From IMG/VR virus record IMGVR_UViG_3300031853_000001, positions 116,933-180,932 of that record: a stretch of 64,000 nt of DNA. The stretch is one strand, 5' to 3'. Shown here in pieces: positions 1-10,354 of this stretch (within the stretch, counting starts at the first letter, position 1; every line of letters begins with the position of its first letter). The position numbers and the translations under genes were made by a program. The notes under the pieces were generated by a model that searched no databases, was not told the origin of the DNA, and saw nothing but the letters and a program-made list of their open reading frames with translations. The DNA is from a virus (Duplodnaviria; Caudoviricetes).

Positions 1-2
1 AA

Positions 3-386
3 ATTTTTGAGCAGGCTTTTGGCGATAAGGAAGTTATTCTATTCGGTGAGGGCTATGGTCGTAAAATTCAGAAGGGCGGTGGCAAGTATATTGCCGATGG
101 CGTTGATTTTATTCTATTTGACGTTCTAATTGGTGAGAATTATCAAGAACGTGAATGGGTTGAAAGCACCGCCAAGATGTTTGGTATTAAGGTCGTCCCA
201 ATTGTGGGTGGCGGTTCGCTTGAAGACGCTGTAAATTATGTTAAGAAGCACCCTAATTCGATAATTGCGGAAGATGTACGAGAAATGGAAGGTATTGTAT
301 GTAGACCCGCTGTTGAGCTACGTGACCGTCGTGGTAATCGTATTATTGTAAAAATTAAGTGGGAAGATATAAAGGAGCTTATTTAA
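3..386 (+). CDS. ATP-dependent RNA ligase (Rnl2-like nucleotidyltransferase), 5'-truncated by window edge
   Basis: Frame open from base 3: ...ILFGEGYG...FILFDV...EGIVCRP...IVKIK, matching nucleotidyltransferase motifs III, IIIa, IV and V. Confidence 0.75.
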   Translation: MFEQAFGDKEVILFGEGYGRKIQKGGGKYIADGVDFILFDVLIGENYQEREWVESTAKMFGIKVVPIVGGGSLEDAVNYVKKHPNSIIAEDVREMEGIVCRPAVELRDRRGNRIIVKIKWEDIKELI

Positions 387-387
387 T

Positions 388-612
388 ATGAATGGATTTT
401 ATAAAGTAAAAGTTAATAATTATGGAGAAAAACCCGAAGAATGGTCTGGTGTTGTTGTGGGTAACGATGAAGGTGACCTTATGAACAAGGTTATGAAATA
501 TTATGGTCACGATAATGTAGAACAAATAAGCTTTTGGTTTGGAGAATTTTATGATAATGATGTCGTAGAATTTGACGATTTTAAGGATTGTCCATTATTT
601 GACTTTCACTAA
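388..612 (+). CDS. hypothetical protein
   Basis: 74-aa ORF abutting the ligase, RBS AAGGAG. Confidence 0.6.
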   Translation: MNGFYKVKVNNYGEKPEEWSGVVVGNDEGDLMNKVMKYYGHDNVEQISFWFGEFYDNDVVEFDDFKDCPLFDFH

Positions 613-627
613 AAATTTTGATATAAT
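599..627 (+). promoter_or_regulatory. sigmaA-type promoter upstream of the tRNA island
   Basis: TTGACT-N17-TATAAT. Confidence 0.75.
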
Positions 628-658
628 ATTTATACAAGGTGAGGGAACTCACCAATAA

Positions 659-731
659 TGCGGAGTGGCCAAGTAGTTAAGGCAATTGGCTCATACCCAA
701 TAGATCAAGAGTGCAAATCTCTTCTCCGCAA
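659..731 (+). tRNA. tRNA-Met/Ile2 (CAT)
   Basis: Acceptor TGCGGAG/CTCCGCA; anticodon arm ATTGG-CTCATAC-CCAAT; T arm AAGAG-TGCAAAT-CTCTT. Confidence 0.85.
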
Positions 732-974
732 CTCAGCGCAAAAGGAGAGCAAGCTGTTACTCCGAGTGAACTTATCGGCGCTATATAAATAGGAAAAACC
801 AATTAAATACAGTATTTTAAATGAAGTAATAACTGCCATAGAAGTCATGACCTATGATAGAAGACACTTCATTTAAAGCAACCGGTTGATTTGCGCAATT
901 AAGTCGTTAGAAGCGACTAGAGGGAGAGACCCTGACTAATAAGCAAGTCCATTCTATGAAATGGTAATGTCGAA

Positions 975-1044
975 AACCAATTAGTGTAAAGTAGCATACC
1001 TTACCAATAATAAGGAGAATCAGCGTAGCGAACTGAATTGGCGT
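975..1044 (+). pseudogene. degenerate tRNA-like element (anticodon position AAT)
   Basis: CCAAT/ATTGG partial acceptor, GTGT..GCAT D stem, CCTTA-CCAATAA-TAAGG arm, TCAG..CTGA T stem; no CCA. Confidence 0.45.
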
Positions 1045-1708
1045 ACTGGAATTTGTTGTCCAGAGTAGGCATAAATCGAGCAGCAATGCGGTAATACCCG
1101 TGCACAGGTAGCTAAATTACCCTGGCTCACCAATTATTTTAGAAGATAAGACTTGAGCTTATCTCTGGCTATGAAGCGAGTGCCGTGCCGCAGATGCGGT
1201 GCTTAGTGGAGCCTATGTGGGTTTAGCGTGTCAACCACAATGCGGATAGGTATTAACCGAAAGAAAACACGCTTTAATGGCGCTTTATCCCAAGCCTTTT
1301 CGCGGCGGCGCTATAAGTACCAAAAGGTATTATTTAATACTGAGCGTGAAACTAAGAGGGAACTGAAGGCTGTGCCAAGGTGAAAGGCTAACAGTCCGAG
1401 TGATGACCGTTGAAGCCATTCGGTGCATAGTGGTGCCGTTAAAGCGATGGATGCATACATCGTCCACTTCATTTAATGACTTGATGCTTATCAAGCTAGA
1501 ACTATCGAGGACGTGTGCGGTGGGAATGTTTGAGATTAGATGTAGATAGTTTAAGTATAGACTTGCGGTGCAAGCCTAATCAACTGGCGTTCCGCGGCCA
1601 GAATACTTTGCGGGCTTTATTGATTCGGGAGGAAGTGTCCGTAGATGAACTTCTCGGAGTAATCGCCATAATCGAATCAGCCGTGCGGCTGGCATAATGC
1701 CGCAATAT

Positions 1709-1828
1709 GGCACCGTAGTGCAAAGGTAAGCACGCCGGCCTTTGTGAGATAGGGTAAAGTGCAGTTCAACTCTGCCGTCTCGCACCACAAGCCGGTGATG
1801 CTGGGTTCAAGTCCCGCCGGTGCTTCCA
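1709..1828 (+). tRNA. tRNA-Glu(TTC) interrupted by a 44-nt tRNA-like insert (1744-1787)
   Basis: GGCACCG/CGGTGCT acceptor + T-CCA; CCGGC/GCCGG anticodon stem; removing 1744-1787 gives loop CT-TTC-AA. Confidence 0.85.
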
Positions 1829-1831
1829 AGC

Positions 1832-1918
1832 AAAGAAAAGAGAAGCATAAATCTGATCAATTTATGAGATAATGATGCCCTAACATCAAGTCTTTTCTTT
1901 AATAAATATTATTAGGGT
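1832..1918 (+). promoter_or_regulatory. three-way junction with RBS-pairing loop (RAGATH-18-like) before HNH gene
   Basis: AAAGAAAAGA/TCTTTTCTTT stem; CATAAAT/ATTTATG; TGATG-CCCTAA-CATCA loop complementary to TTAGGG at the RBS. Confidence 0.55.
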
Positions 1919-1924
1919 GATATT

Positions 1925-2566
1925 ATGAGTAGAAAATTAAGCCAACAACAATTTGAAGAAAGAGTATATAAGACATTTGGAGATAAATATTCTGTAGTAA
2001 GTGAATATTTAGGTCAAAGAAAACCTATAACTTTACATTGTAATATACACAATATTGATTTTACAGCTACTGCTGAATGTTTCATGAGACAAGCTAATGA
2101 CACTCGCTCAAGTTGTCCAGAATGTACTGCAGAAAAACGAAGACAAGAAAATAATTCTGTAAAATGTGAATGTGCTTATTGTCATAAAATTTTTTATTTG
2201 TCTCAATCTAAAGCTAATAATTCTAAAAGTGGATTACATTTTTGTTGTAGAGAACATAAAGATTTAGCTCAAAGAATAGATAGCGGTGAACAATTCGATA
2301 TAATGCGCCCGCCTCATTATAATGCAATAAAAAATGATACAGGAACAATTGGGACATATCGTATTTTAGCTTTTAGAAATTATCCCCATAAGTGCGCTGT
2401 TTGTAATTGGGACGAAGATGAAGATATATTACAAGTTCATCATATAGATGAAAATAGACAAAATAATTCTTTAACCAATTTAATTATTTTATGTCCTAAT
2501 TGTCACGCAAAAATAACTTATGGGAAATATAAATTAATTGATCGAAAACAAATTATATTAAAATAA
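1925..2566 (+). CDS. HNH endonuclease
   Basis: CAVC...VHHIDENRQNN...LCPNCH. Confidence 0.85.
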   Translation: MSRKLSQQQFEERVYKTFGDKYSVVSEYLGQRKPITLHCNIHNIDFTATAECFMRQANDTRSSCPECTAEKRRQENNSVKCECAYCHKIFYLSQSKANNSKSGLHFCCREHKDLAQRIDSGEQFDIMRPPHYNAIKNDTGTIGTYRILAFRNYPHKCAVCNWDEDEDILQVHHIDENRQNNSLTNLIILCPNCHAKITYGKYKLIDRKQIILK

Positions 2567-2579
2567 AATTAAATAGGAG

Positions 2580-2885
2580 TTGTTGTATATGGCAATCCAC
2601 GATAGAGCTTATACTCGTACAAAAAGTTGGACTAAGGCACTTCGTAAATACCACATTGATAGAGATATTTCCGCAGGTAAATGGTGGCCTATGTACAATA
2701 ATCTCCATCAATATGCTGATAATAAAATTCATTGTTCCTGTCCAATGTGTAGTGCTAAAACCAACAACAAAAAGCGCAATGGGCCTCGTGGATGGGAACC
2801 TTCAAAAAATTGGTCTATTTCAGATCAAAAGAAAATTAATAGTATGGAAAGTCAAGTTGAGGAATTAAATGATAACTTGGAATAA
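2580..2885 (+). CDS. hypothetical protein (HCSCPMC motif)
   Basis: ORF with RBS AGGAG; start may be ATG 2589. Confidence 0.6.
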   Translation: MLYMAIHDRAYTRTKSWTKALRKYHIDRDISAGKWWPMYNNLHQYADNKIHCSCPMCSAKTNNKKRNGPRGWEPSKNWSISDQKKINSMESQVEELNDNLE

Positions 2886-3063
2886 TTTTAAATGTGATTT
2901 TCCGTATCATCGTATAGATAATTTTGGCGATTATAGTGAAATGTGGTGCGGACGATTAGAAAAATATATTTCTAATTGTAATGATTGCCCATTTAACCAA
3001 AAAGAAAAAGAGATGCGTGAAGACCCCAATAATTATCAAAAATGGCTAAAATTACATAATTGA
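2869..3063 (+). CDS. hypothetical Cys-rich protein
   Basis: Overlaps upstream ORF; RBS GAGG. Confidence 0.55.
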   Translation: MITWNNFKCDFPYHRIDNFGDYSEMWCGRLEKYISNCNDCPFNQKEKEMREDPNNYQKWLKLHN

Positions 3064-3121
3064 CTTTTTCTAAAAATTATAGTATAATATATATAGTTAA
3101 GGGAAAGGAGATAAATTATTT

Positions 3122-3253
3122 ATGAATTATCTGGATGATTTTCTTGTTGGCCCGCAGAGCGATGAATATGATTGGTATTATGAAAATGAAATTCCTGATC
3201 CAGAATGGGACAGGAGATGTCGAGGATTGGATAAACTAATACTTGACAAGTAA
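3122..3253 (+). CDS. small acidic protein (43 aa)
   Basis: RBS AAAGGAG and own promoter at ~3060; below ORF-track cutoff. Confidence 0.5.
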   Translation: MNYLDDFLVGPQSDEYDWYYENEIPDPEWDRRCRGLDKLILDK

Positions 3254-3271
3254 TAAAAATTATGTTATAAT
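3243..3271 (+). promoter_or_regulatory. consensus sigmaA promoter
   Basis: TTGACA-N17-TATAAT with TG extended -10. Confidence 0.8.
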
Positions 3272-3301
3272 ATTTATAGAAACAAGGAAAGGATGATAAT
3301 T

Positions 3302-3394
3302 GTGCGCTTTACGACTCGCAAGTCTCGTACTGTGTTTTCTTCTTCTTGGAGTCGCCGCAAGCAGGCAGAGATGCTTGATGAGTGGCAGATTTAA
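3302..3394 (+). CDS. small basic peptide (30 aa, GTG start) MRFTTRKSRTVFSSSWSRRKQAEMLDEWQI
   Basis: RBS GAAAGGA behind a consensus promoter. Confidence 0.5.
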   Translation: MRFTTRKSRTVFSSSWSRRKQAEMLDEWQI

Positions 3395-3939
3395 ACGCCA
3401 GATTAGTTCAGCAAATTGCGGCCAATATTAATGGCGTTACCGCATTCCTTACTTATAGTTTGGAAGTACAAAGGTTTTGAGTAATTGAACCGGTTAAATC
3501 AATGCTTGGCGCCGGGTCCACCCTACTGGGCTCGTAAACAAATCGCGGCCAATGGTGAGAAGCGCCACCGCTATAAAGGAATGCCCCACGACGGGTTTCG
3601 TAAGTTATGTTGAAAGATATATACTAGCTTGGAATAAGCACACGCAAGAGTTGCTATAATGCGCAACAGAAAAATCCTTTATAATAGGTTAACCTACGGT
3701 CGGATGGGAGACGATAAACCCCTTTCAAGCAGTCTCTTTGGCGGTTGGACTTAAAATAAACCACCTAGGTCAGCAGGACTGATAACTATATATTATAGAA
3801 GCAATCTCTTTTATAATATATAGAAAACGCAGCCATAATCCTGTCGTTGCGGCGAACAACGATAAAAATCGCTAGTAGCCCAGATACTTACTTAAAGGGT
3901 TTTCGCCGCGTTAATCTTGGTATCGGATTGCGGTTGTAT

Positions 3940-4074
3940 CCACGCGTGGTGCAAATGGCGAGACACAGCGGACTTACGTAGGCCCAGTGGCTTGTTGGAG
4001 AGCAACACTCCTTCCTACGACCAAAATCCGCGACGCAAGATACATTGCTGGTTCAAATCCAGTCGCGTGGACCA
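3940..4074 (+). tRNA. tRNA-Leu(TAA) interrupted by a 47-nt tRNA-like insert (3977-4023)
   Basis: CCACGCG/CGCGTGG-A-CCA; GCGGA/TCCGC stem; long variable region; removing the insert gives CT-TAA-AA. Confidence 0.85.
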
Positions 4075-4077
4075 TAT

Positions 4078-4154
4078 GAGTTTGTAACCGAATTGGCATA
4101 GGTACTTGGCTCAAACCCAAGGTTTTGTGGGTTCGACTCCCACCAAACTCACCA
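4078..4154 (+). tRNA. tRNA-Leu(CAA)
   Basis: GAGTTTG/CAAACTC-A-CCA; CTTGG-CTCAAAC-CCAAG; GTGGG-TTCGACT-CCCAC. Confidence 0.9.
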
Positions 4155-4222
4155 AAATTTATATTTCGAGTGCGAATTATAATAATTTGAATTCGATGTT
4201 ATTACTTATCTAATGTAAGGAG

Positions 4223-4993
4223 GTGGTTAATATGCCACTAAAATATAAATTAGAAGAAGTATTAACAGAAAATTCTCCTGTTACTAGAAAAGTTTTAAAA
4301 GATTATTTAGCAAAATATAATGTTTTAGAATATAAATGTGCAATATGCGATAACAGAGGAGAATGGAATGGAGTTTCTTTAACATTACAAATAGACCATA
4401 TTAATGGTATAAGAGATGATAATAGAAAAGAAAATCTTCGTTGGCTATGCCCGAATTGTCATTCTCAAACTGATACTTTTACTGGGAAAAATAAAACTAA
4501 AAAAGAAGTTGTTAATTTTACAGTAGAAGAAGCTATTAAAGCATTACAACAAACTGAAAATGTAAATCAAGCAACCAAATTAATCGGCTGTGCGCAAGGT
4601 GGAGCAAATTGGATTAGAGTAAATGATATTAAAAAAAAGTATGGAATTATTCAATCTGGGGATTTAAAGAAAGAAGAAAAACAAAAGTTTAAAGAAAATC
4701 ATATTAATGCGAAACCAATTAACTCTATTAAATTATGTAAAAAATGCGGCCGTCCGTTATCGACAAAAGATGCTGAATACTGTCAAACTTGTATACACGA
4801 ATTTCAACGAAAATGTGAATGGCCTTCTCGCGAAGAACTTAAAAAATTAATTCGCTCTACACCTTTTTTACAAATAGGTAAAAAATATAATGTAAGCGAT
4901 AATGCTGTAAGAAAATGGTGCTTAAATTATGGTTTGCCATCTAAAAAGATGGAAATAAAAGCAATTTCAGATGAAGATTGGAATAATATTTGA
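4223..4993 (+). CDS. HNH endonuclease
   Basis: CAIC...LQIDHING...NLRWLCPNCHSQT. Confidence 0.9.
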   Translation: MVNMPLKYKLEEVLTENSPVTRKVLKDYLAKYNVLEYKCAICDNRGEWNGVSLTLQIDHINGIRDDNRKENLRWLCPNCHSQTDTFTGKNKTKKEVVNFTVEEAIKALQQTENVNQATKLIGCAQGGANWIRVNDIKKKYGIIQSGDLKKEEKQKFKENHINAKPINSIKLCKKCGRPLSTKDAEYCQTCIHEFQRKCEWPSREELKKLIRSTPFLQIGKKYNVSDNAVRKWCLNYGLPSKKMEIKAISDEDWNNI

Positions 4994-5044
4994 CTTTCTT
5001 TTAAAATTATAGTATAATAATTATAGTAAAGAGAAAGGATTTAT

Positions 5045-5257
5045 ATGAAAGCAAAGTGTAAATGCAGTTGTATTTGGGACTATTCTTGTAATGATATTAA
5101 AGTTGAACCTGACGGTCACGATGTTGTAGTTACTTTATATTGCCCTAATTGTGGGCATCAGCTTTTTGCTTATAGCCCTAATGACCTAATAGAAAAAGTA
5201 TCTCCTTCTTATGTTGATACTCATTGTTTTTCAAAATACACTTGGAATAATACTTGA
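5045..5257 (+). CDS. hypothetical Zn-ribbon protein
   Basis: CxC..CPNCG; promoter and RBS upstream. Confidence 0.6.
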   Translation: MKAKCKCSCIWDYSCNDIKVEPDGHDVVVTLYCPNCGHQLFAYSPNDLIEKVSPSYVDTHCFSKYTWNNT

Positions 5258-5294
5258 CTTTTAGCAGAAAATCTGCTATAATAAATATGTAAGA

Positions 5295-5365
5295 ACGACG
5301 GTAGCAGCAGTTTTAATAATAAATATTTTTAATGTAAAAATCCTTATTAGCAAAAATTCCGTCGT
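5295..5365 (+). ncRNA. stem-CAGCA cassette 1 (skipping-rope-like)
   Basis: ACGACGG/CCGTCGT closing stem, GCAGCAG, internal AT-rich hairpin. Confidence 0.5.
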
Positions 5366-5379
5366 GCTGATTGAAATTA

Positions 5380-5445
5380 AGGCGGACACAGCAAATAACT
5401 ATTTAAGCAATAATCTTTTAAATTATGTAGCTAAAATAACCGCCT
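5380..5445 (+). ncRNA. stem-ACAGCAA cassette 2 carrying a Lys(TTT) anticodon arm
   Basis: AGGCGG/CCGCCT; ACAGCAA; ATAAT-CTTTTAA-ATTAT. Confidence 0.6.
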
Positions 5446-5454
5446 AGAATTTAT

Positions 5455-5532
5455 GTGCCCGTGGCGCAACTTGGCAGACGCGCTACACTTAGGATGTAGA
5501 TTTTCAGAGTTCAAATCTCTGCGGGCGCACCA
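5455..5532 (+). tRNA. tRNA-Leu(TAG)
   Basis: GTGCCCG/CGGGCGC-A-CCA; CTACA-CTTAGGA-TGTAG; CAGAG-TTCAAAT-CTCTG. Confidence 0.9.
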
Positions 5533-5740
5533 GTCACTCCTCGCTAATGCGACAAGTCGCGTTAACATTTGTTTGTTAGCTACTGTTGGAAAACGCGACT
5601 TTAAAATACAAAGAAGCAACAGTAAATAGCTCAAACCGTATGTTGAGACTATCGTAACTATCACATTCTAGGAGTCCTGACTCGTTATTGGACTTAATAC
5701 TCAACGGAGTTGGCGCCCAAACAAATCCTAGAATGTATAT

Positions 5741-5793
5741 GGTATCAAGTGAAGAGCCTTCTCGTGGCGATACTGATTTCGACTAATCTTCAC
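5741..5793 (+). ncRNA. minimal HDV-like (theta-type) self-cleaving ribozyme
   Basis: P1 GGTATC/GATACT with G1.U wobble; P2 GTGAAGA/TCTTCAC; P3 GCC/GGC; L3 TTCTCGT; J4/2 CTAA. Confidence 0.75.
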
Positions 5794-6015
5794 AAAATAT
5801 TAAAGCGTGCTTTTCCTTGCTGTACACTTGTTGAAAAGCCAAATGTTCCCGTATGAGAATACGCAGGTTATACCTGTATATTGAAATCCCATAAGACGTC
5901 ACAAAGGAATGGATAGAAATTACAATGGGCCATTCAGAAAGTAGAACACTTTAATATTTGACTTTTTCTGAAAATTCTGGTATAATAATTACAGAAACAA
6001 GGAAAGGACAAAATA

Positions 6016-6171
6016 ATGAAGATACTTGTTGTAAATAAAGATGAGAAAATACAATTAATTCATCTCCTAAAACAAGAAATACGCAAACCTGGTTGTCCTT
6101 ATGAATTACTTACTATTTTAGAAAAACTTAGTCCTGGAGACTATGAATATCTTTTTACAACTATGAAATAA
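6016..6171 (+). CDS. small hypothetical protein (51 aa)
   Basis: Promoter at 5958-5986, RBS GAAAGGA. Confidence 0.55.
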   Translation: MKILVVNKDEKIQLIHLLKQEIRKPGCPYELLTILEKLSPGDYEYLFTTMK

Positions 6172-6194
6172 AAGAAAGGAAGTAGATACTCCAT

Positions 6195-6748
6195 TTAATA
6201 AAATGGTTGAACCAAGTGAAGAAGAGTTAACCACTCTGCTTGGGCTATCTAAATAACAGCCATACGATTTAGCGGGATACTACTAAATCGCGGCCACGAA
6301 ATCAGTAATGATTAGTGATAAGGAGAAACTCTTAATGTTAAGGATAGGCGCTTGGTTATTCGCTAACAAAAACTTGGCTCCTTGCGGCGTCGTAATAGAA
6401 AGCAGATTGAGCAGATTTGCCGAACCCAGAAAAGACTTTAAGGTGGCAGTTAAAGGGACTCTGGGAAAGCCATAAGACGTTTGGTGTCGTTGAAACCTAG
6501 AAATAGGATATAAGCAAGGTTCACAGATAAAGTAGCCTAAAACGACAATGATTCTAATAAGTAATTTAATTAGAATAATGTGCTGAATGGTTTAGGTGAA
6601 ATTTGGGAGTAATCAGTCTCCCCGTTGCTAGCCAAAAGGCAGGATGAAGAAGTTAAAGGGTCGCTACCTTTGGCTCAGCCTTCATCTTCAACGTGGTTGA
6701 ATATGTTAGAAGGATAATACAAGTACGGCGAAGGTCGCAACGGTTTTA
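6195..6748 (+). ncRNA. large structured RNA, ROOL-like
   Basis: ~550 nt ORF-free and helix-rich; the 3' part (AAAAGGCAGGATGAAG..GGGTCGCTACC..CTCAGCCTTCATC..GTGGTTGAATA..GGCGAAGGTC) resembles ROOL 3' domains as recalled; tRNA-island context. Confidence 0.5.
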
Positions 6749-6768
6749 TTAAATGGGGTATTTGCCCT

Positions 6769-6854
6769 AGACTTTAAGGTAGCATTGGAGTAATTAACCA
6801 ATGAGACAAAGATGCTCCTACATCGGCTTAAAGTTTAAAATATAATCATAGGAG
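6769..6854 (+). promoter_or_regulatory. RAGATH-18-like three-way junction/pseudoknot masking the HNH RBS
   Basis: ACTTTAAG/CTTAAAGT; CATTGG/CCAATG; GAGACAAA; GATG-CTCCTA-CATC loop complementary to RBS TAGGAG. Confidence 0.6.
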
Positions 6855-6863
6855 TGATTTAAT

Positions 6864-7424
6864 ATGCCAAGGAAAATTGATTTAACAGGAAAAATTTTTG
6901 GAATCATACAGGTAGATTCGCCAGCACCAAGTCAATCTGGTAAAACGTATTGGAATTGTCATTGTACAATTTGTAATACTAAAAAAGTAATTCAAGGTTG
7001 CGCCTTAAAAAATGGTTCTATTAAAACTTGCGGTTGTGGTTGTTCTTTTCATAAACAAAATACTTCAAAAATTTGTGAAATTTGTGGAAAAGAATTTATT
7101 CCAATAAAATTTGGCGGTGCTAGAAAATATTGTTATGAATGTTCTCCGCAAGAAGGCTCAGAAACAGATAAGCGCACAGTTATAAGACGAGCTTTAAAAA
7201 AGATGCTAGTTGATTATAAAGGTGGAAAATGTGAACGATGTGGATATAATAAATGTTTACGCGCATTAGAATTTCATCATTTAAATCCGTCTGAAAAAGA
7301 TTTTGGAATTTCTGGATGTATAACTAAAAATGTAGAAGAATTAAAAAATGAAGTTAATAAATGTATTTTAGTTTGTTCTAATTGTCACGCGGAAATTCAT
7401 GAAGAATTAGACGAGGCCCGTTAG
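6864..7424 (+). CDS. HNH endonuclease
   Basis: CERCGY..LEFHH...CILVCSNCHAEIH; stop codon lies inside tRNA-Asn. Confidence 0.85.
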   Translation: MPRKIDLTGKIFGIIQVDSPAPSQSGKTYWNCHCTICNTKKVIQGCALKNGSIKTCGCGCSFHKQNTSKICEICGKEFIPIKFGGARKYCYECSPQEGSETDKRTVIRRALKKMLVDYKGGKCERCGYNKCLRALEFHHLNPSEKDFGISGCITKNVEELKNEVNKCILVCSNCHAEIHEELDEAR

Positions 7425-7491
7425 TCCAGTTGGCAGAACGATAGACTGTTAATCTATGTCAGCGCTGGTTCAAGTCCAGCACGGGCCGCCA
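7415..7491 (+). tRNA. tRNA-Asn(GTT)
   Basis: GGCCCGT/ACGGGCC-G-CCA; ATAGA-CTGTTAA-TCTAT. Confidence 0.92.
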
Positions 7492-7771
7492 TAGTCACAT
7501 AGAGGACTTATTCTCTATGCTTGCTCAACGTCCCACTTATGTGAACGCGCGAAGTCACATAAGAGAGTCAACCCTTCCGAAGTACGAAGGAACCCCTAAA
7601 ATGGTCTGTGGGGATAAGCGGTGTCATGAACCGCCTAATGTAGCTGGCAAAGAGCATAGGTTCGTTAGGCTCCTAAGAAAAGCCTATCACCATCACGATA
7701 GCAAATAAGTGAATAAACGGATACGCGGTTAGCTGACCTTAAAGCTATTCTAATCTAGAGGAGAATAAAAT

Positions 7772-8311
7772 ATGAGTGACGTAAGACTAAAAATTTTACC
7801 TCCATGGACAGTAACAATTCGTAAGTTTGAGGCACTATTTGACGGTGACCCACAAATTGCTTGTAATTGTAATTTCTCAGGTTCTAATCCTTCTATTGTA
7901 CTAGCTTGTAATAATGGTGATAAGGTTGCTGCTCTACAGCAGATTCTTCCTTCTGAAGTTGGCTTTGGCAATATTAAGCTAAAGGTCGCGGTTGATGGTG
8001 TTCCTTCTAATCGTACTTTCAAGAGTAAGGTTGAACTATTTGACACGGCTTTCAAGGGGAATCCAGCATACGCTTATTCTGCATGTCCTGCTGAGGAAGG
8101 TTATCAGTGGATTGGGACTACTTATGTTGTATTTAATAACTGTGTAGTGCAGTTCGCGGCGGACAATCTAAATGATTGCCATGGTATTATTAGCACCCTA
8201 TATGAAACTATCGCAAGCGAACTTCTAACTGGCCCCGCTACTGATGGTGTATTTTATAATACAAATGTAGAACGTGCTGGGCTTGGTCTTTCGCTAGGAG
8301 AATGGCCATAA
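7772..8311 (+). CDS. hypothetical protein
   Basis: 179 aa, RBS GAGGAG, phage-like codon usage. Confidence 0.75.
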   Translation: MSDVRLKILPPWTVTIRKFEALFDGDPQIACNCNFSGSNPSIVLACNNGDKVAALQQILPSEVGFGNIKLKVAVDGVPSNRTFKSKVELFDTAFKGNPAYAYSACPAEEGYQWIGTTYVVFNNCVVQFAADNLNDCHGIISTLYETIASELLTGPATDGVFYNTNVERAGLGLSLGEWP

Positions 8312-8532
8312 AAGATAAGTTCACTGGGCTCTTCTAAAGTCCAGTACCAAAGCCGAATGTCACATAAAGTTAACGACGGTGCGGTATGAAAAGACCACGC
8401 TGTAGTGGCACGGGCAGAGCTAATCCGGCAAGGAAAGCGGCGGTTAAAGTGAAATCGCGACGCGGAAAGAGAAAGAATAACAACCAGTGATGGGTCGAAA
8501 GACGTCTTATCAGTTTTCTCGGTCACTTTTAT

Positions 8533-8606
8533 AGTCCGTTAGTTTAACAGTAAAATATAACCCTGTCACGGTTAAGTTACGAGGGCAGCACTCGTACGGA
8601 CTGCCA
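8533..8606 (+). tRNA. tRNA-Asp(GTC) with atypical T loop GGCAGCA
   Basis: AGTCCGT/ACGGACT-G-CCA; TAACC-CTGTCAC-GGTTA. Confidence 0.85.
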
Positions 8607-8724
8607 TAGACTCAAACAGCAATATTTTACTTGCATGTGGGGCCGGAAGTATTGGTTTAACTCCAGTTCTCTCCACCACATGGAGAGATAGTGTAACGAT
8701 AGCACGCCGTATAGTATGAGTCTA
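8607..8724 (+). ncRNA. stem-ACAGCAA cassette 3 containing a circularly permuted tRNA (GTG/His-like anticodon)
   Basis: TAGACTCA/TGAGTCTA; the 3' half (T arm, TCTCTCC-A-CCA) precedes the 5' half (GGAGAGA-TA-D arm). Confidence 0.7.
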
Positions 8725-8730
8725 GTATAT

Positions 8731-9283
8731 CGGGTTGTAGCGCAGTTTGGTAGCGCGCCTCGCTTGGGAAAAGCGATTTGTGCTTAATTATTATGTTAGA
8801 CATTACTCAACAAAAAGGAACGATTACAGAATTACGATGTATTTTAGATTTAACTAATTTGGGAATACGATGTTTAGTTCCTGTAGATGAAAGTTCTAAA
8901 TATGATGTAGTAGCAGATTTAAATGGTACTTTTATTAGAATTCAATGTAAAACAGCTTGTTGGGCTAAAGATACCGTTCAAGAAAAAGTAGCCTTTGAAA
9001 TAGATACTTGTCGAAGTACAACAAATACTAAAACTACTACTCATTATAAGTATTCTGCTAATGAAATTGATTATTTTTATACATGGTTTGAAGGACAAGG
9101 TTACTTAGTCTCCATTAAAGAAGCAAAAGGTTTAACTTTTAGATGGCGATATGAATATCCTTCTACCAATCAAAAACAAGGTATTCATATCGCAGAATTA
9201 TATAAGACTGAGGAGGTTTTAAAAGCACTCTAAAATTTTCCTGGACGAGGAGGCCGCAGGTTCAAATCCTGCCTGCCCGACCA
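8731..9283 (+). tRNA. tRNA-Pro(TGG) split by a 476-nt endonuclease-bearing insert (8767-9242)
   Basis: 5' half CGGGTTG..CCTCG-CTTG; 3' half GGA-CGAGG..GCAGG-TTCAAAT-CCTGC-CTGCCCG-A-CCA. Confidence 0.85.
8778..9233 (+). CDS. PD-(D/E)XK homing endonuclease (I-Ssp6803I-like) inside tRNA-Pro; likely start ATG 8793
   Basis: KG.ITE...KYDVVAD...IRIQCKT motif. Confidence 0.8.
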   Translation: MCLIIMLDITQQKGTITELRCILDLTNLGIRCLVPVDESSKYDVVADLNGTFIRIQCKTACWAKDTVQEKVAFEIDTCRSTTNTKTTTHYKYSANEIDYFYTWFEGQGYLVSIKEAKGLTFRWRYEYPSTNQKQGIHIAELYKTEEVLKAL

Positions 9284-9394
9284 TAATCAACTGGGTTTGA
9301 AGGTTATCCCATTTGAAAAACCTTCCCCTTTCTTTCTTGACTTTTTCTAAAAATTTTGATATAATAAATATATCAAAGGAAAGGAAATAAAAAG

Positions 9395-9622
9395 ATGGAT
9401 AAGAAAGAACTTTCTACTAATGCGGCAAAAGCAGAATTTGTAAAGTCTATTCATAATTGGCTTATGCGAACTTTAGAGCAAAACAATAAATCTGAATATA
9501 AAGATTGTTTTACTGTTGAAGGTTCTAGTATTATGTGCCAACTGCCGCAAGACTACTTTAATTCATGTAGTATTCCAGCGAACACTAAGATTGAAATGAA
9601 GTTTATTTCTAAGAAATCATAA
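9395..9622 (+). CDS. hypothetical protein
   Basis: Promoter at 9337-9365, RBS. Confidence 0.65.
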   Translation: MDKKELSTNAAKAEFVKSIHNWLMRTLEQNNKSEYKDCFTVEGSSIMCQLPQDYFNSCSIPANTKIEMKFISKKS

Positions 9623-9626
9623 CTAA

Positions 9627-9718
9627 TAAGCCTTTACTGCAATTACTTAAATGGTTAAATTATTTTGCTTGAATACAAAATGAGAGAAGGTTCGAGCCCT
9701 TCACAATTAAAAGGCTTA
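9627..9718 (+). ncRNA. stem-ACTGCAA cassette 4 with an acceptor-less tRNA body
   Basis: TAAGCCTTT/AAAGGCTTA; D-loop-like AAATGGTTAAA; ATTTTG-CTTGAATA-CAAAAT; GAAGG-TTCGAGC-CCTTC. Confidence 0.6.
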
Positions 9719-9734
9719 GCAAAGTTAGAAACTA

Positions 9735-9800
9735 AAGGCACAAGCAGCAACAAGACGTTTTAATAATTTGATAGTGGATTAAATTTATTGAGTGTGCCTT
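9735..9800 (+). ncRNA. stem-GCAGCAA cassette 5 with a GTG anticodon-like arm
   Basis: AAGGCACA/TGTGCCTT; TTTGA-TAGTGGA-TTAAA. Confidence 0.55.
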
Positions 9801-9809
9801 GATTATTAA

Positions 9810-9886
9810 GTCGGTTTAGCTTAGCTGGTTAAAGCACTCGCCTTGTAAGCGAGAGACCTTCGGTCCGAATCCGAAAACCGGCTCCA
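9810..9886 (+). tRNA. tRNA-Thr(TGT)
   Basis: GTCGGTT/AACCGGC-T-CCA; CTCGC-CTTGTAA-GCGAG. Confidence 0.9.
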
Positions 9887-9907
9887 TCTAAAAGAAGGAG
9901 TATTAAA

Positions 9908-10354
9908 ATGGGACTTTTTAATCGGTCTAAAAAAGAGCCTACAAAACAATATATTCCACCTGAGCAGCCTAAAAAATGCGAGCATAAATTTCAAGATTTT
10001 CCTTGGTATATAGAAGGAGAAGAAAATGAAGGTAATGTATATGGTTGTAACTCTTGGTATCATCTAGTAATTAAAGAACCTTATGTTTGTATTTATTGTG
10101 GCGAAAGATATGATAAAATATTGTGGGAAATAAGACGATATGGCTCTCATAAAGAAGCAATGCAGGCTCTAGATGATGTTAATGAAAAATTTAAAGACCG
10201 AATAAGACATCGCGCAGAAATTGAAGATATGATAAATGATATGCAATTAGTCGATCCTCAATATTTACAATATTATCATATGCTTCAGGGAACAAAAGAC
10301 CCATCTACTTCTCGATTATATGAGCAAGAAATTAAACCAAAATTAAAAACTTAA
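9908..10354 (+). CDS. hypothetical protein
   Basis: RBS AAGGAG, 148 aa. Confidence 0.7.
   Translation: MGLFNRSKKEPTKQYIPPEQPKKCEHKFQDFPWYIEGEENEGNVYGCNSWYHLVIKEPYVCIYCGERYDKILWEIRRYGSHKEAMQALDDVNEKFKDRIRHRAEIEDMINDMQLVDPQYLQYYHMLQGTKDPSTSRLYEQEIKPKLKT

Follow-up and report, generated by a model that had tools for sequence, protein, structure and literature searches.

Anticodon-loop introns in the tRNA genes of an uncultured phage: evidence of structural selection and a possible protein-dependent route of removal

How can a tRNA gene that is interrupted inside its anticodon loop remain of service to the phage that carries it? The question is raised by a stretch of 64,000 nucleotides (nt), referred to below as the window, which is the last 64 kb of the 180,932-bp IMG/VR record IMGVR_UViG_3300031853_000001 of an uncultured 181-kb phage. 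Three tRNA genes of the window, those for Glu, Leu and Pro, are each split by an insert in the anticodon loop. These are best explained, with a probability that we put at roughly one half, as working tRNA genes whose introns depend on proteins for their removal and move about as mobile DNA, with a tRNA-shaped class (the Glu and Leu inserts), which would be excised by a route that combines RNase P, an RNase Z-type nuclease and an RNA ligase, and a second class (the Pro insert). A previous reading of the letters alone (the sequence-only reading) had proposed much of this scheme, with a single insertion site at position 35/36 and a mini-tRNA in every insert, and several of its parts have had to be redrawn.

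The phage genome (34.5% G+C) was read with the standard bacterial code; its 24 tRNA genes form two arrays, interspersed with ROOL and drum RNAs and many homing-endonuclease genes. A megablast search of window positions 1-10000 against GenBank phages found no close relatives. ARAGORN at its default settings called none of the three split genes; with introns allowed, it reported them at 1709-1828 (44-nt insert), 3940-4074 (47 nt) and 8731-9283 (476 nt). The anticodons that it assigned to the split Glu and Leu genes (Val-cac and Leu-caa) are wrong when judged by their intronless relatives. The Rfam tRNA model bridges the Glu insert with 44.8 bits, and excision of 1744-1787 and 3977-4023 in silico makes ARAGORN call tRNA-Glu(ttc) and tRNA-Leu(taa). 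The split Pro gene is called as tRNA-Pro(tgg) with introns allowed, and its loop without 8767-9242 was judged by eye only. Standard tRNA finders thus overlook such genes (three of three here) or give them a wrong anticodon (two were miscalled with introns allowed), and inferences on phage tRNA repertoires, codon supply and stop-codon recoding are biased as a result.

The interruption of all three genes in the anticodon loop is agreed on by ARAGORN with introns allowed and by exact empty-site alleles, which were found for Glu, Leu and Pro. When metagenomes were scanned for the joined Glu gene, four colinear multi-kb phage contigs came up that have the same gene uninterrupted, and their BLAST alignment to the genome breaks exactly at 1743|1788. 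The Glu insertion site is therefore unambiguous at 35/36, as originally proposed, and intronless Glu orthologues have the loop CTTTCAA. The same Glu insert also occurs in L004, L008 and L009. The orthologous intronless Leu(UAA) gene of L012 has the loop CTTAAAA, and the Leu site is compatible with 34/35 or 35/36. An intronless tRNA-Pro(UGG) lies at the syntenic position in G001 and L012; because GGA is repeated at both ends of the insert, any position from 35/36 to 38/39 is possible for the Pro site. Alleles with and without insert exist for Glu and Leu, and the prediction that removal restores a canonical 7-nt loop holds for both by ARAGORN and by intronless alleles.

There are several indications that the split genes stay functional. 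An alignment was made of nine homologous split tRNA-Pro genes, taken from different phages, and the pairs of the stated structure were counted beside controls in which the pairing partner had been slid. In these nine genes 99% of the cells pair, against 42-52% in the slid controls, and double changes occur in 21 pairs. The Pro anticodon stem, whose strands lie 480 nt apart across the 476-nt insert, covaries at all five of its pairs. Likewise, the Glu anticodon stem occurs in three pairing-preserving variants, in genes with the intron and in genes without it, and one C-G pair has become U-A across the intron. Comparison of the split Ile genes of L009 and G001 shows a compensated pair in the acceptor stem, U-A to A-U. 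The anticodon-loop bases beside the inserts are identical to those in the loops of intronless alleles. Moreover, for the codons GAA (82% of its Glu codons), UUA (51% of Leu) and CCA (43% of Pro), which are its most-used codons for these amino acids, the phage has no tRNA gene besides the split ones. Covariation and sole-gene status together imply that these are not decaying pseudogenes; judged from the alignments, the split tRNA genes are under structural selection and kept working.

What, then, do the inserts have in common? ARAGORN intron calls, which are blind to the content of the intron, were catalogued in about a dozen related phages; a 'Lys-ctt' call in G002 with a 27-nt 'intron' was omitted, as it looked like a multi-hairpin tRNA-like RNA. 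Ten sequence-unrelated families of short introns, 44-76 nt in length, were obtained. Each of the ten has a terminal stem of 6-8 bp, which at most 11 of 2000 shuffles reach, and each ends in a 4-nt tail that begins with a purine, the tail being RCCA (R, purine) in eight, ACUA in one and GCAA in one. The chance probability of this tail pattern is about 1.6e-13 with two boundaries allowed per intron. The Glu and Leu inserts run from the first base of the stem to a purine-CCA tail (7 bp and ACCA, and 6 bp and ACCA, respectively), and the Pro insert does not. The observed closing stem was matched by 1 of 2000 shuffled Glu inserts and by 11 of 2000 shuffled Leu inserts, and the fold of the Glu insert has paired ends and a free 4-nt tail (z -3.0). 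The end helices and ACCA tails quoted in the sequence-only reading stand in the sequence as written.

Insertion sites across the short-intron families are 32/33, 34/35, 35/36 and 36/37, so that 35/36 is not a conserved site, contrary to what the sequence-only reading required of the relatives. Rather, the constant element is the insert itself, that is, terminal stem plus 4-nt tail, and not a position in the loop. The Ile introns offer an example. Their stem covaries at two pairs between L009 and G001, and the first base, G or C, changes together with its partner; it hence belongs to the intron, and both genes read UAU with the site at 34/35. The interior of the inserts differs widely in its likeness to a tRNA, from a complete tRNA (47.8 bits, anticodon CUA) in the L009 Ile intron to families that retain just a hairpin; the Glu insert has the T-loop-like UUCAACU loop and the Leu insert has none. 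Of the proposal that the inserts are mini-tRNAs, the acceptor-like stem and ACCA stand for Glu and Leu and the T-loop for Glu only, and the Pro insert is not a mini-tRNA. As an observation in its own right, L009:3366-3518 has an amber-suppressor-type CUA tRNA nested in the anticodon loop of a tRNA-Ile(UAU), and the homologous insert of G001 (L027:8514-8662) is now below scoring by the tRNA model.

The Pro insert is of a separate class, a homing-endonuclease intron closed by a covarying two-part helix and not a mini-tRNA. Its open reading frame (ORF) matches PF11645 with 73.3 bits (cut-off 26.1) and PDB entry 2OST, deposited as 'putative endonuclease', which we take to be I-Ssp6803I, at E 2.7e-6; nine homologues of this endonuclease were located in tRNA-Pro genes. 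Helix P1 (8766-8772 with 9236-9242) has a double change at one pair and a single change at another, and in helix P2 (8780-8784 with 9224-9228) 5/5 pairs covary; both are 100% paired in the nine homologues. The insert has neither CCA nor T arm, and 26 nt precede the ORF and 9 nt trail it. ORF-only introns with related endonucleases occur also in Met, Lys and other tRNA genes of relatives. A single rule for all these ORF-bearing introns was sought and none emerged: their ends always pair, but the tail lengths vary. RNase III was rejected for the Pro intron, since the site pairs that the covarying helix allows give 3' overhangs of 1, 3 or 5 nt and never a 2-nt stagger. Read as a stem plus 1 nt with no CCA following, the Pro intron would fit the geometry of RNase P and ordinary RNase Z, if weakly, and this is held loosely. 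The features of the locus are collected in Table 1.

Table 1. Split tRNA genes and associated protein genes of the locus, in window coordinates
Feature	Position	Strand	Family or further reference
Phage RNA ligase gene, 3' part (C-terminal 127 of 216 aa)	3..386	+	PF09414; whole gene L001:16669-17319, protein P0001
tRNA-Glu(UUC) 5' exon, last base U35	1709..1743	+	
Glu insert, 44 nt: 7-bp terminal stem, hairpin with T-loop-like UUCAACU loop, ACCA tail	1744..1787	+	
tRNA-Glu 3' exon, CCA encoded	1788..1828	+	
HNH endonuclease gene, downstream of the split Glu gene	1925..2566	+	PF01844
tRNA-Leu(UAA) 5' exon, to A35 under the stem-plus-ACCA reading	3940..3976	+	
Leu insert, 47 nt: 6-bp terminal stem, inner hairpin without T-loop motif, ACCA tail	3977..4023	+	
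tRNA-Leu(UAA) 3' exon, long variable arm and CCA	4024..4074	+	
HNH endonuclease gene downstream of the Leu pair	4223..4993	+	PF13392, PF01844
tRNA-Pro(UGG) 5' exon, boundary ambiguous by <=3 nt	8731..8766	+	
Pro insert, 476 nt	8767..9242	+	
Intron ORF, 146 aa, PD-(D/E)XK homing endonuclease, I-Ssp6803I family	8793..9233	+	PF11645
tRNA-Pro 3' exon with CCA	9243..9283	+	

The patchy distribution of the introns bears on how they arrived. The phage genome (G000) has introns in Glu, Leu and Pro but an intact Ile(UAU) gene, whereas the syntenic G001 has introns in Leu and Ile but intact Glu and Pro genes. The 47-nt Leu intron together with the anticodon stem is identical at 64 of 64 positions in the window and in a different Leu(UAA) gene (L007:2892-3025), while the remainder of these two genes is identical at just 19/28 and 27/43 positions. 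Similarly, the intron-bearing Pro gene of L022 and the intronless one of L012 share a common body and differ in the anticodon stem. Such a mosaic of intron and flanks points to homing with co-conversion, and that the introns probably spread as mobile DNA is part of the explanation to which about one half was assigned as a whole. Five free-standing homing-endonuclease genes (HNH, GIY-YIG, and HNH with DUF2726) are found in about 17 kb of the tRNA array, three of them in the window, namely the two HNH genes of Table 1 and one at 6864-7424, and two at L001:9636-10271 and L001:12147-13103.

The known ways of removing a tRNA intron do not suit these inserts. No group I core (Rfam RF00028) was matched in window 600-9900 at E 1, nor in 8700-9300 at E 10; as a positive control, a 349-nt intron in the Leu(UAA) gene of a relative (L009:17418-17723) was recognised as group I at 50.6 bits, E 6e-12. 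The Glu and Leu inserts end in A, not in the G of the group I rule, and the Pro 5' exon ends in G at every allowed site, where the rule has U. The Pro intron possesses an ORF of the I-Ssp6803I type, but no self-splicing group I host intron was found around it. With no core, inserts of 44 and 47 nt, and families without common sequence, self-splicing was rejected, in agreement with what had been claimed from the letters. A bulge-helix-bulge (BHB) intron was rejected on inspection of the folds, in which both splice sites lie at one junction of anticodon stem and intron stem with no 4-bp helix between them. The splicing endonuclease EndA (PF01974) had no match in five phage genomes, while four archaeal controls were positive, and to our knowledge such an endonuclease is absent from bacterial hosts. 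A shared site at 37/38 was likewise discarded, as it would give impossible Glu and Leu anticodons and the relatives range from 32/33 to 36/37. Long inserts at the classical 34/35 site were observed in Leu(UAA) genes of relatives (L009:17364-17789, L032:1543-2366 on the minus strand, and L034:12024-12848); that of L009 is a true group I intron by score, and those of L032 and L034 resemble one another at their ends. In the window, this tRNA gene is the one with the 47-nt insert.

The build of the short introns suggests another route. For bacterial RNase P the minimal substrate is a stem joined to an RCCA on its 3' side, and any such stem is cleaved (PMC4693268). The Glu and Leu inserts have the helix, the 5' leader and the 3' RCCA of such a substrate. 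In the proposed mechanism, the tRNA-shaped intron would be an autonomous unit that extends from the first base of its acceptor-like stem to its purine-CCA tail and may sit at variable positions in the loop. Host RNase P would cut where the intron stem begins on its 5' side, treating it like any other stem followed by RCCA, and a host endonuclease that makes CCA ends, for which a CCA-tolerant RNase Z or an RNase BN-type enzyme is a candidate, would cut directly after the tail. The tRNA body would then hold the two halves, and the Rnl2-like phage ligase would seal the nick between 3'-OH and 5'-phosphate in the anticodon loop. In the Pro intron, the endonuclease gene would be looped out by the covarying two-part helix, with neither ribozyme nor CCA. 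All the enzymatic steps are inferred, with good grounds for the RNase P cut on the 5' side.

The ligase gene at the start of the window had been named correctly from its letters. The protein matches PF09414 with 66.6 bits (cut-off 27), has the PHROG name 'RNA ligase' and carries the KxDG lysine motif as EKIDG; its best solved relative is the N-terminal domain of T4 Rnl2 (1s68, E 4e-7). Ligase genes are found in G000, G002, G003, G004 and G005, and G004 and G005, which were reached through an endonuclease and not with the ligase as bait, encode proteins of OB-fold and RNA ligase. The neighbour of the ligase gene, shortly before the window begins, is a Ro60-like gene with DUF2828/DUF7788 (L001:14117-15754; PHROG 'RNA-binding protein'). 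About 42 kb from the ligase gene lies that of a 293-aa protein (G000:C1:74889-75768, equal to L038:890-1768) in which a P-loop domain like that of polynucleotide kinase is fused to an HD phosphohydrolase domain. It matches PDB 4gp6 and 4jst (deposited as 'Metallophosphoesterase') at E 4e-7, presumably the kinase domain of C. thermocellum Pnkp, and by these matches the kinase-HD protein is a candidate RNA end-healing enzyme. Phage genes for RtcB, RNase III, a CCA-adding enzyme and an RNase Z-type metallo-beta-lactamase were looked for and none was found; hence the cutting enzymes are probably those of the host.

A number of points weigh against this account. The weak step is the 3' cut straight after the CCA. 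RNase Z of the B. subtilis type is inhibited by CCA, and we know of no general bacterial endonuclease that cuts exactly after CCA before a structured 3' exon. The tRNase Z of T. maritima does cut after an encoded CCA (PMC3161902). A second cut by RNase P at the 3' splice site was considered and rejected by reasoning, as the 5' exon acting as guide strand would put the cut at 38/39 and not at the observed site. Two of the short-intron families end in ACUA and GCAA rather than RCCA, and the T-loop motif is present in only 4 of 11 inserts, or 3 of 10 families (two Ile alleles being one family), so that most inserts are not true minihelices. The Pro class, on inspection of its structure, has no RCCA and no fit to the 2-nt stagger of RNase III. 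Nor is the ligase an obvious partner. With 216 aa it lacks the C-terminal domain of Rnl2 (TIGR02307 37.4 bits against a cut-off of 197), which T4 Rnl2 needs for nick sealing, and ligase and healing enzyme together form the classical set by which tRNAs cut by anticodon nucleases are mended; the Ro60-like neighbour and the kinase-HD protein imply that the task of the ligase may be to repair RNA and not to splice it. The build of the inserts and the nested tRNA fit excision by the enzymes that process tRNA ends, as the sequence-only reading had it; it is the link to the ligase that is weakened by these two genes.

Other explanations have to account for the same observations. A dedicated, unrecognised endonuclease of phage or host might cut at both sites and leave a 2',3'-cyclic phosphate and a 5'-OH, which the kinase-HD protein would heal before the ligase seals, in the manner of yeast Trl1 or of T4 Pnkp together with Rnl1. 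The products of RNase P and RNase Z would not need the kinase-HD protein; several large ORFs of no known family exist in the tRNA region, and such an enzyme would also cover the CCA-less introns of the Pro type. It is unlikely nonetheless: EndA-like genes were not found in the five genomes, the purine-CCA tail and stem-base start of unrelated introns would be left unexplained, sites that range from 32/33 to 36/37 are hard to square with an enzyme that takes its measure from the tRNA body, and about 42 kb separate the kinase-HD gene from the ligase gene. It is more improbable still that the insert is excised and the halves are never rejoined, the outer tRNA being a carrier or scaffold for a CCA-ended RNA or a source of exact tRNA halves. 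The full suppressor-type tRNA in one insert could indeed be a product itself, and tRNA-mimic RNAs are plentiful in the region, but the loop bases beside the inserts match those of intronless alleles, the split genes are sole suppliers for the most-used codons, and the interiors of the short inserts show no relation from one family to another and for the most part do not resemble a tRNA.

The patchy presence and absence of introns among close relatives, the mosaic transfer of introns with their flanks and the density of homing-endonuclease genes would also be expected if the split genes were dead or dying, hit by selfish mobile DNA that is tRNA-like or bears an endonuclease. This explanation has very little probability left and is, on the alignments, already disfavoured by the covariation: compensatory changes keep all the Pro stems paired in nine diverged copies, and likewise in Glu and Ile, no split gene shows decay, and the genome has no spare copies of these tRNAs. 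Finally, an unrecognised small ribozyme, or a core supplied in trans by one of the many unexplained structured RNAs nearby (ROOL and drum included), is barely credible in spite of the true group I introns in Leu(UAA) of relatives, given inserts of 44 and 47 nt that end in A, families with no common sequence and no group I match in 600-9900 at E 1 or, even at E 10, in the Pro intron. The protein-dependent introns set out above are preferred.

Some further features of the region deserve mention. A tRNA-Asp(GUC) gene at window 8533-8603 (Rfam match 45.8 bits) was overlooked by ARAGORN. A full-length ROOL RNA (6188-6756, 315 bits) and a drum RNA (1166-1277, 70.8 bits) lie within the tRNA array; the ROOL position is the same in relatives, one of which additionally has RAGATH-33. 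By eye, a promoter-like repeat unit, TTGACT, about 17 nt and TATAAT, recurs upstream of small ORFs and RNA genes at window ~608-640, 3061-3090, 4990-5020, 5256-5290, 5957-5990 and 9338-9370. The motif ACAGCAA occurs 15 times in the whole window against 8.8 expected, a count that 1 of 100 shuffles reaches, and four of the copies are in the tRNA region (5388, 8616, 10367 and 10497). In G005, a 116-nt stretch (L034:17473-17588) scores 41 bits with the tRNA model and has a long insert bearing CAGCAA in place of the anticodon arm, which makes it a tRNA mimic and not a split tRNA.

How do these introns compare with known systems? The nearest precedents are in other phages. The tRNAs of Lak megaphages were reported to have 'enigmatic' introns, one perhaps encoding a tRNA (Devoto et al. 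2019, PMC6784885), and a jumbo-phage survey of 2026 repeats the remark (PMC13037316). As here, those introns interrupt the anticodon loop and may encode a tRNA; intron sequences recur unchanged from sample to sample, and the predicted boundary moves between alleles that have the intron and alleles that lack it. These papers give no structural rule, selection evidence or mechanism, and our literature search found none for such introns, only brief remarks. In contrast to the Lak introns, those described here are mostly cut down to a stem with RCCA (44-50 nt), their site is variable, and an ORF-only class exists alongside. Group I tRNA introns, such as those of Leu(UAA) and of fMet with I-Ssp6803I, resemble them in target genes, loop, endonuclease family and co-conversion of exon flanks; the present introns differ in having no catalytic core, no room for one and, in Glu and Leu, no terminal G. 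The introns served by EndA or Sen and by RtcB or Trl1 are similarly short, non-catalytic and in the anticodon loop, and protein removal with rejoining by a ligase, which would apply here too, is common to both; here, however, there is no BHB, the site is not 37/38, and no EndA or RtcB gene was found. Unlike in archaeal and eukaryotic introns, recognition appears to lie wholly within the intron.

The enzymes also have their counterparts. Like Pnkp and Rnl1 of T4, the phage ligase and a kinase/phosphoesterase could reseal a broken anticodon loop. The phage ligase is nearest to the adenylyltransferase domain of Rnl2 and has neither the C-terminal domain of Rnl2 nor a tRNA-binding domain of the Rnl1 type, and the healing enzyme uses an HD domain and not the T4-type phosphatase, its role in splicing being putative. 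The class may have arisen by ligation of mature small RNAs into broken anticodon loops, and the CCA-ended minihelices, once released, might be of use to the phage, for instance by drawing off host toxins directed at the 3' ends of tRNAs.

In design the short introns resemble the model substrates and external guide sequences of RNase P, in which a stem of 6-8 bp is followed by RCCA (PMC4693268), and the design, a stem with RCCA placed in a loop, is simple enough for a direct test. In the punctuation model of mitochondrial transcripts, tRNA-shaped units serve as cutting marks in longer RNAs; here the punctuation is inside another tRNA, and the flanks must consequently be rejoined. We know of no other natural case of tRNA-shaped punctuation within a tRNA. 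Tentatively, and at somewhat less than even odds, we propose a further route of tRNA splicing, in which self-contained RNase P-type cassettes, some of them whole tRNAs, anywhere in the anticodon loop are excised by the nucleases of end maturation and the exons are rejoined by a phage ligase, with the kinase-HD protein in reserve. If this is true, a selfish insert would be tolerated in an essential RNA by mimicking that RNA's own processing signals, and bacteria and their phages would splice tRNAs by means of proteins that belong to the equipment of every cell, a third pathway beside self-splicing introns and the endonuclease pathway of archaea and eukaryotes.

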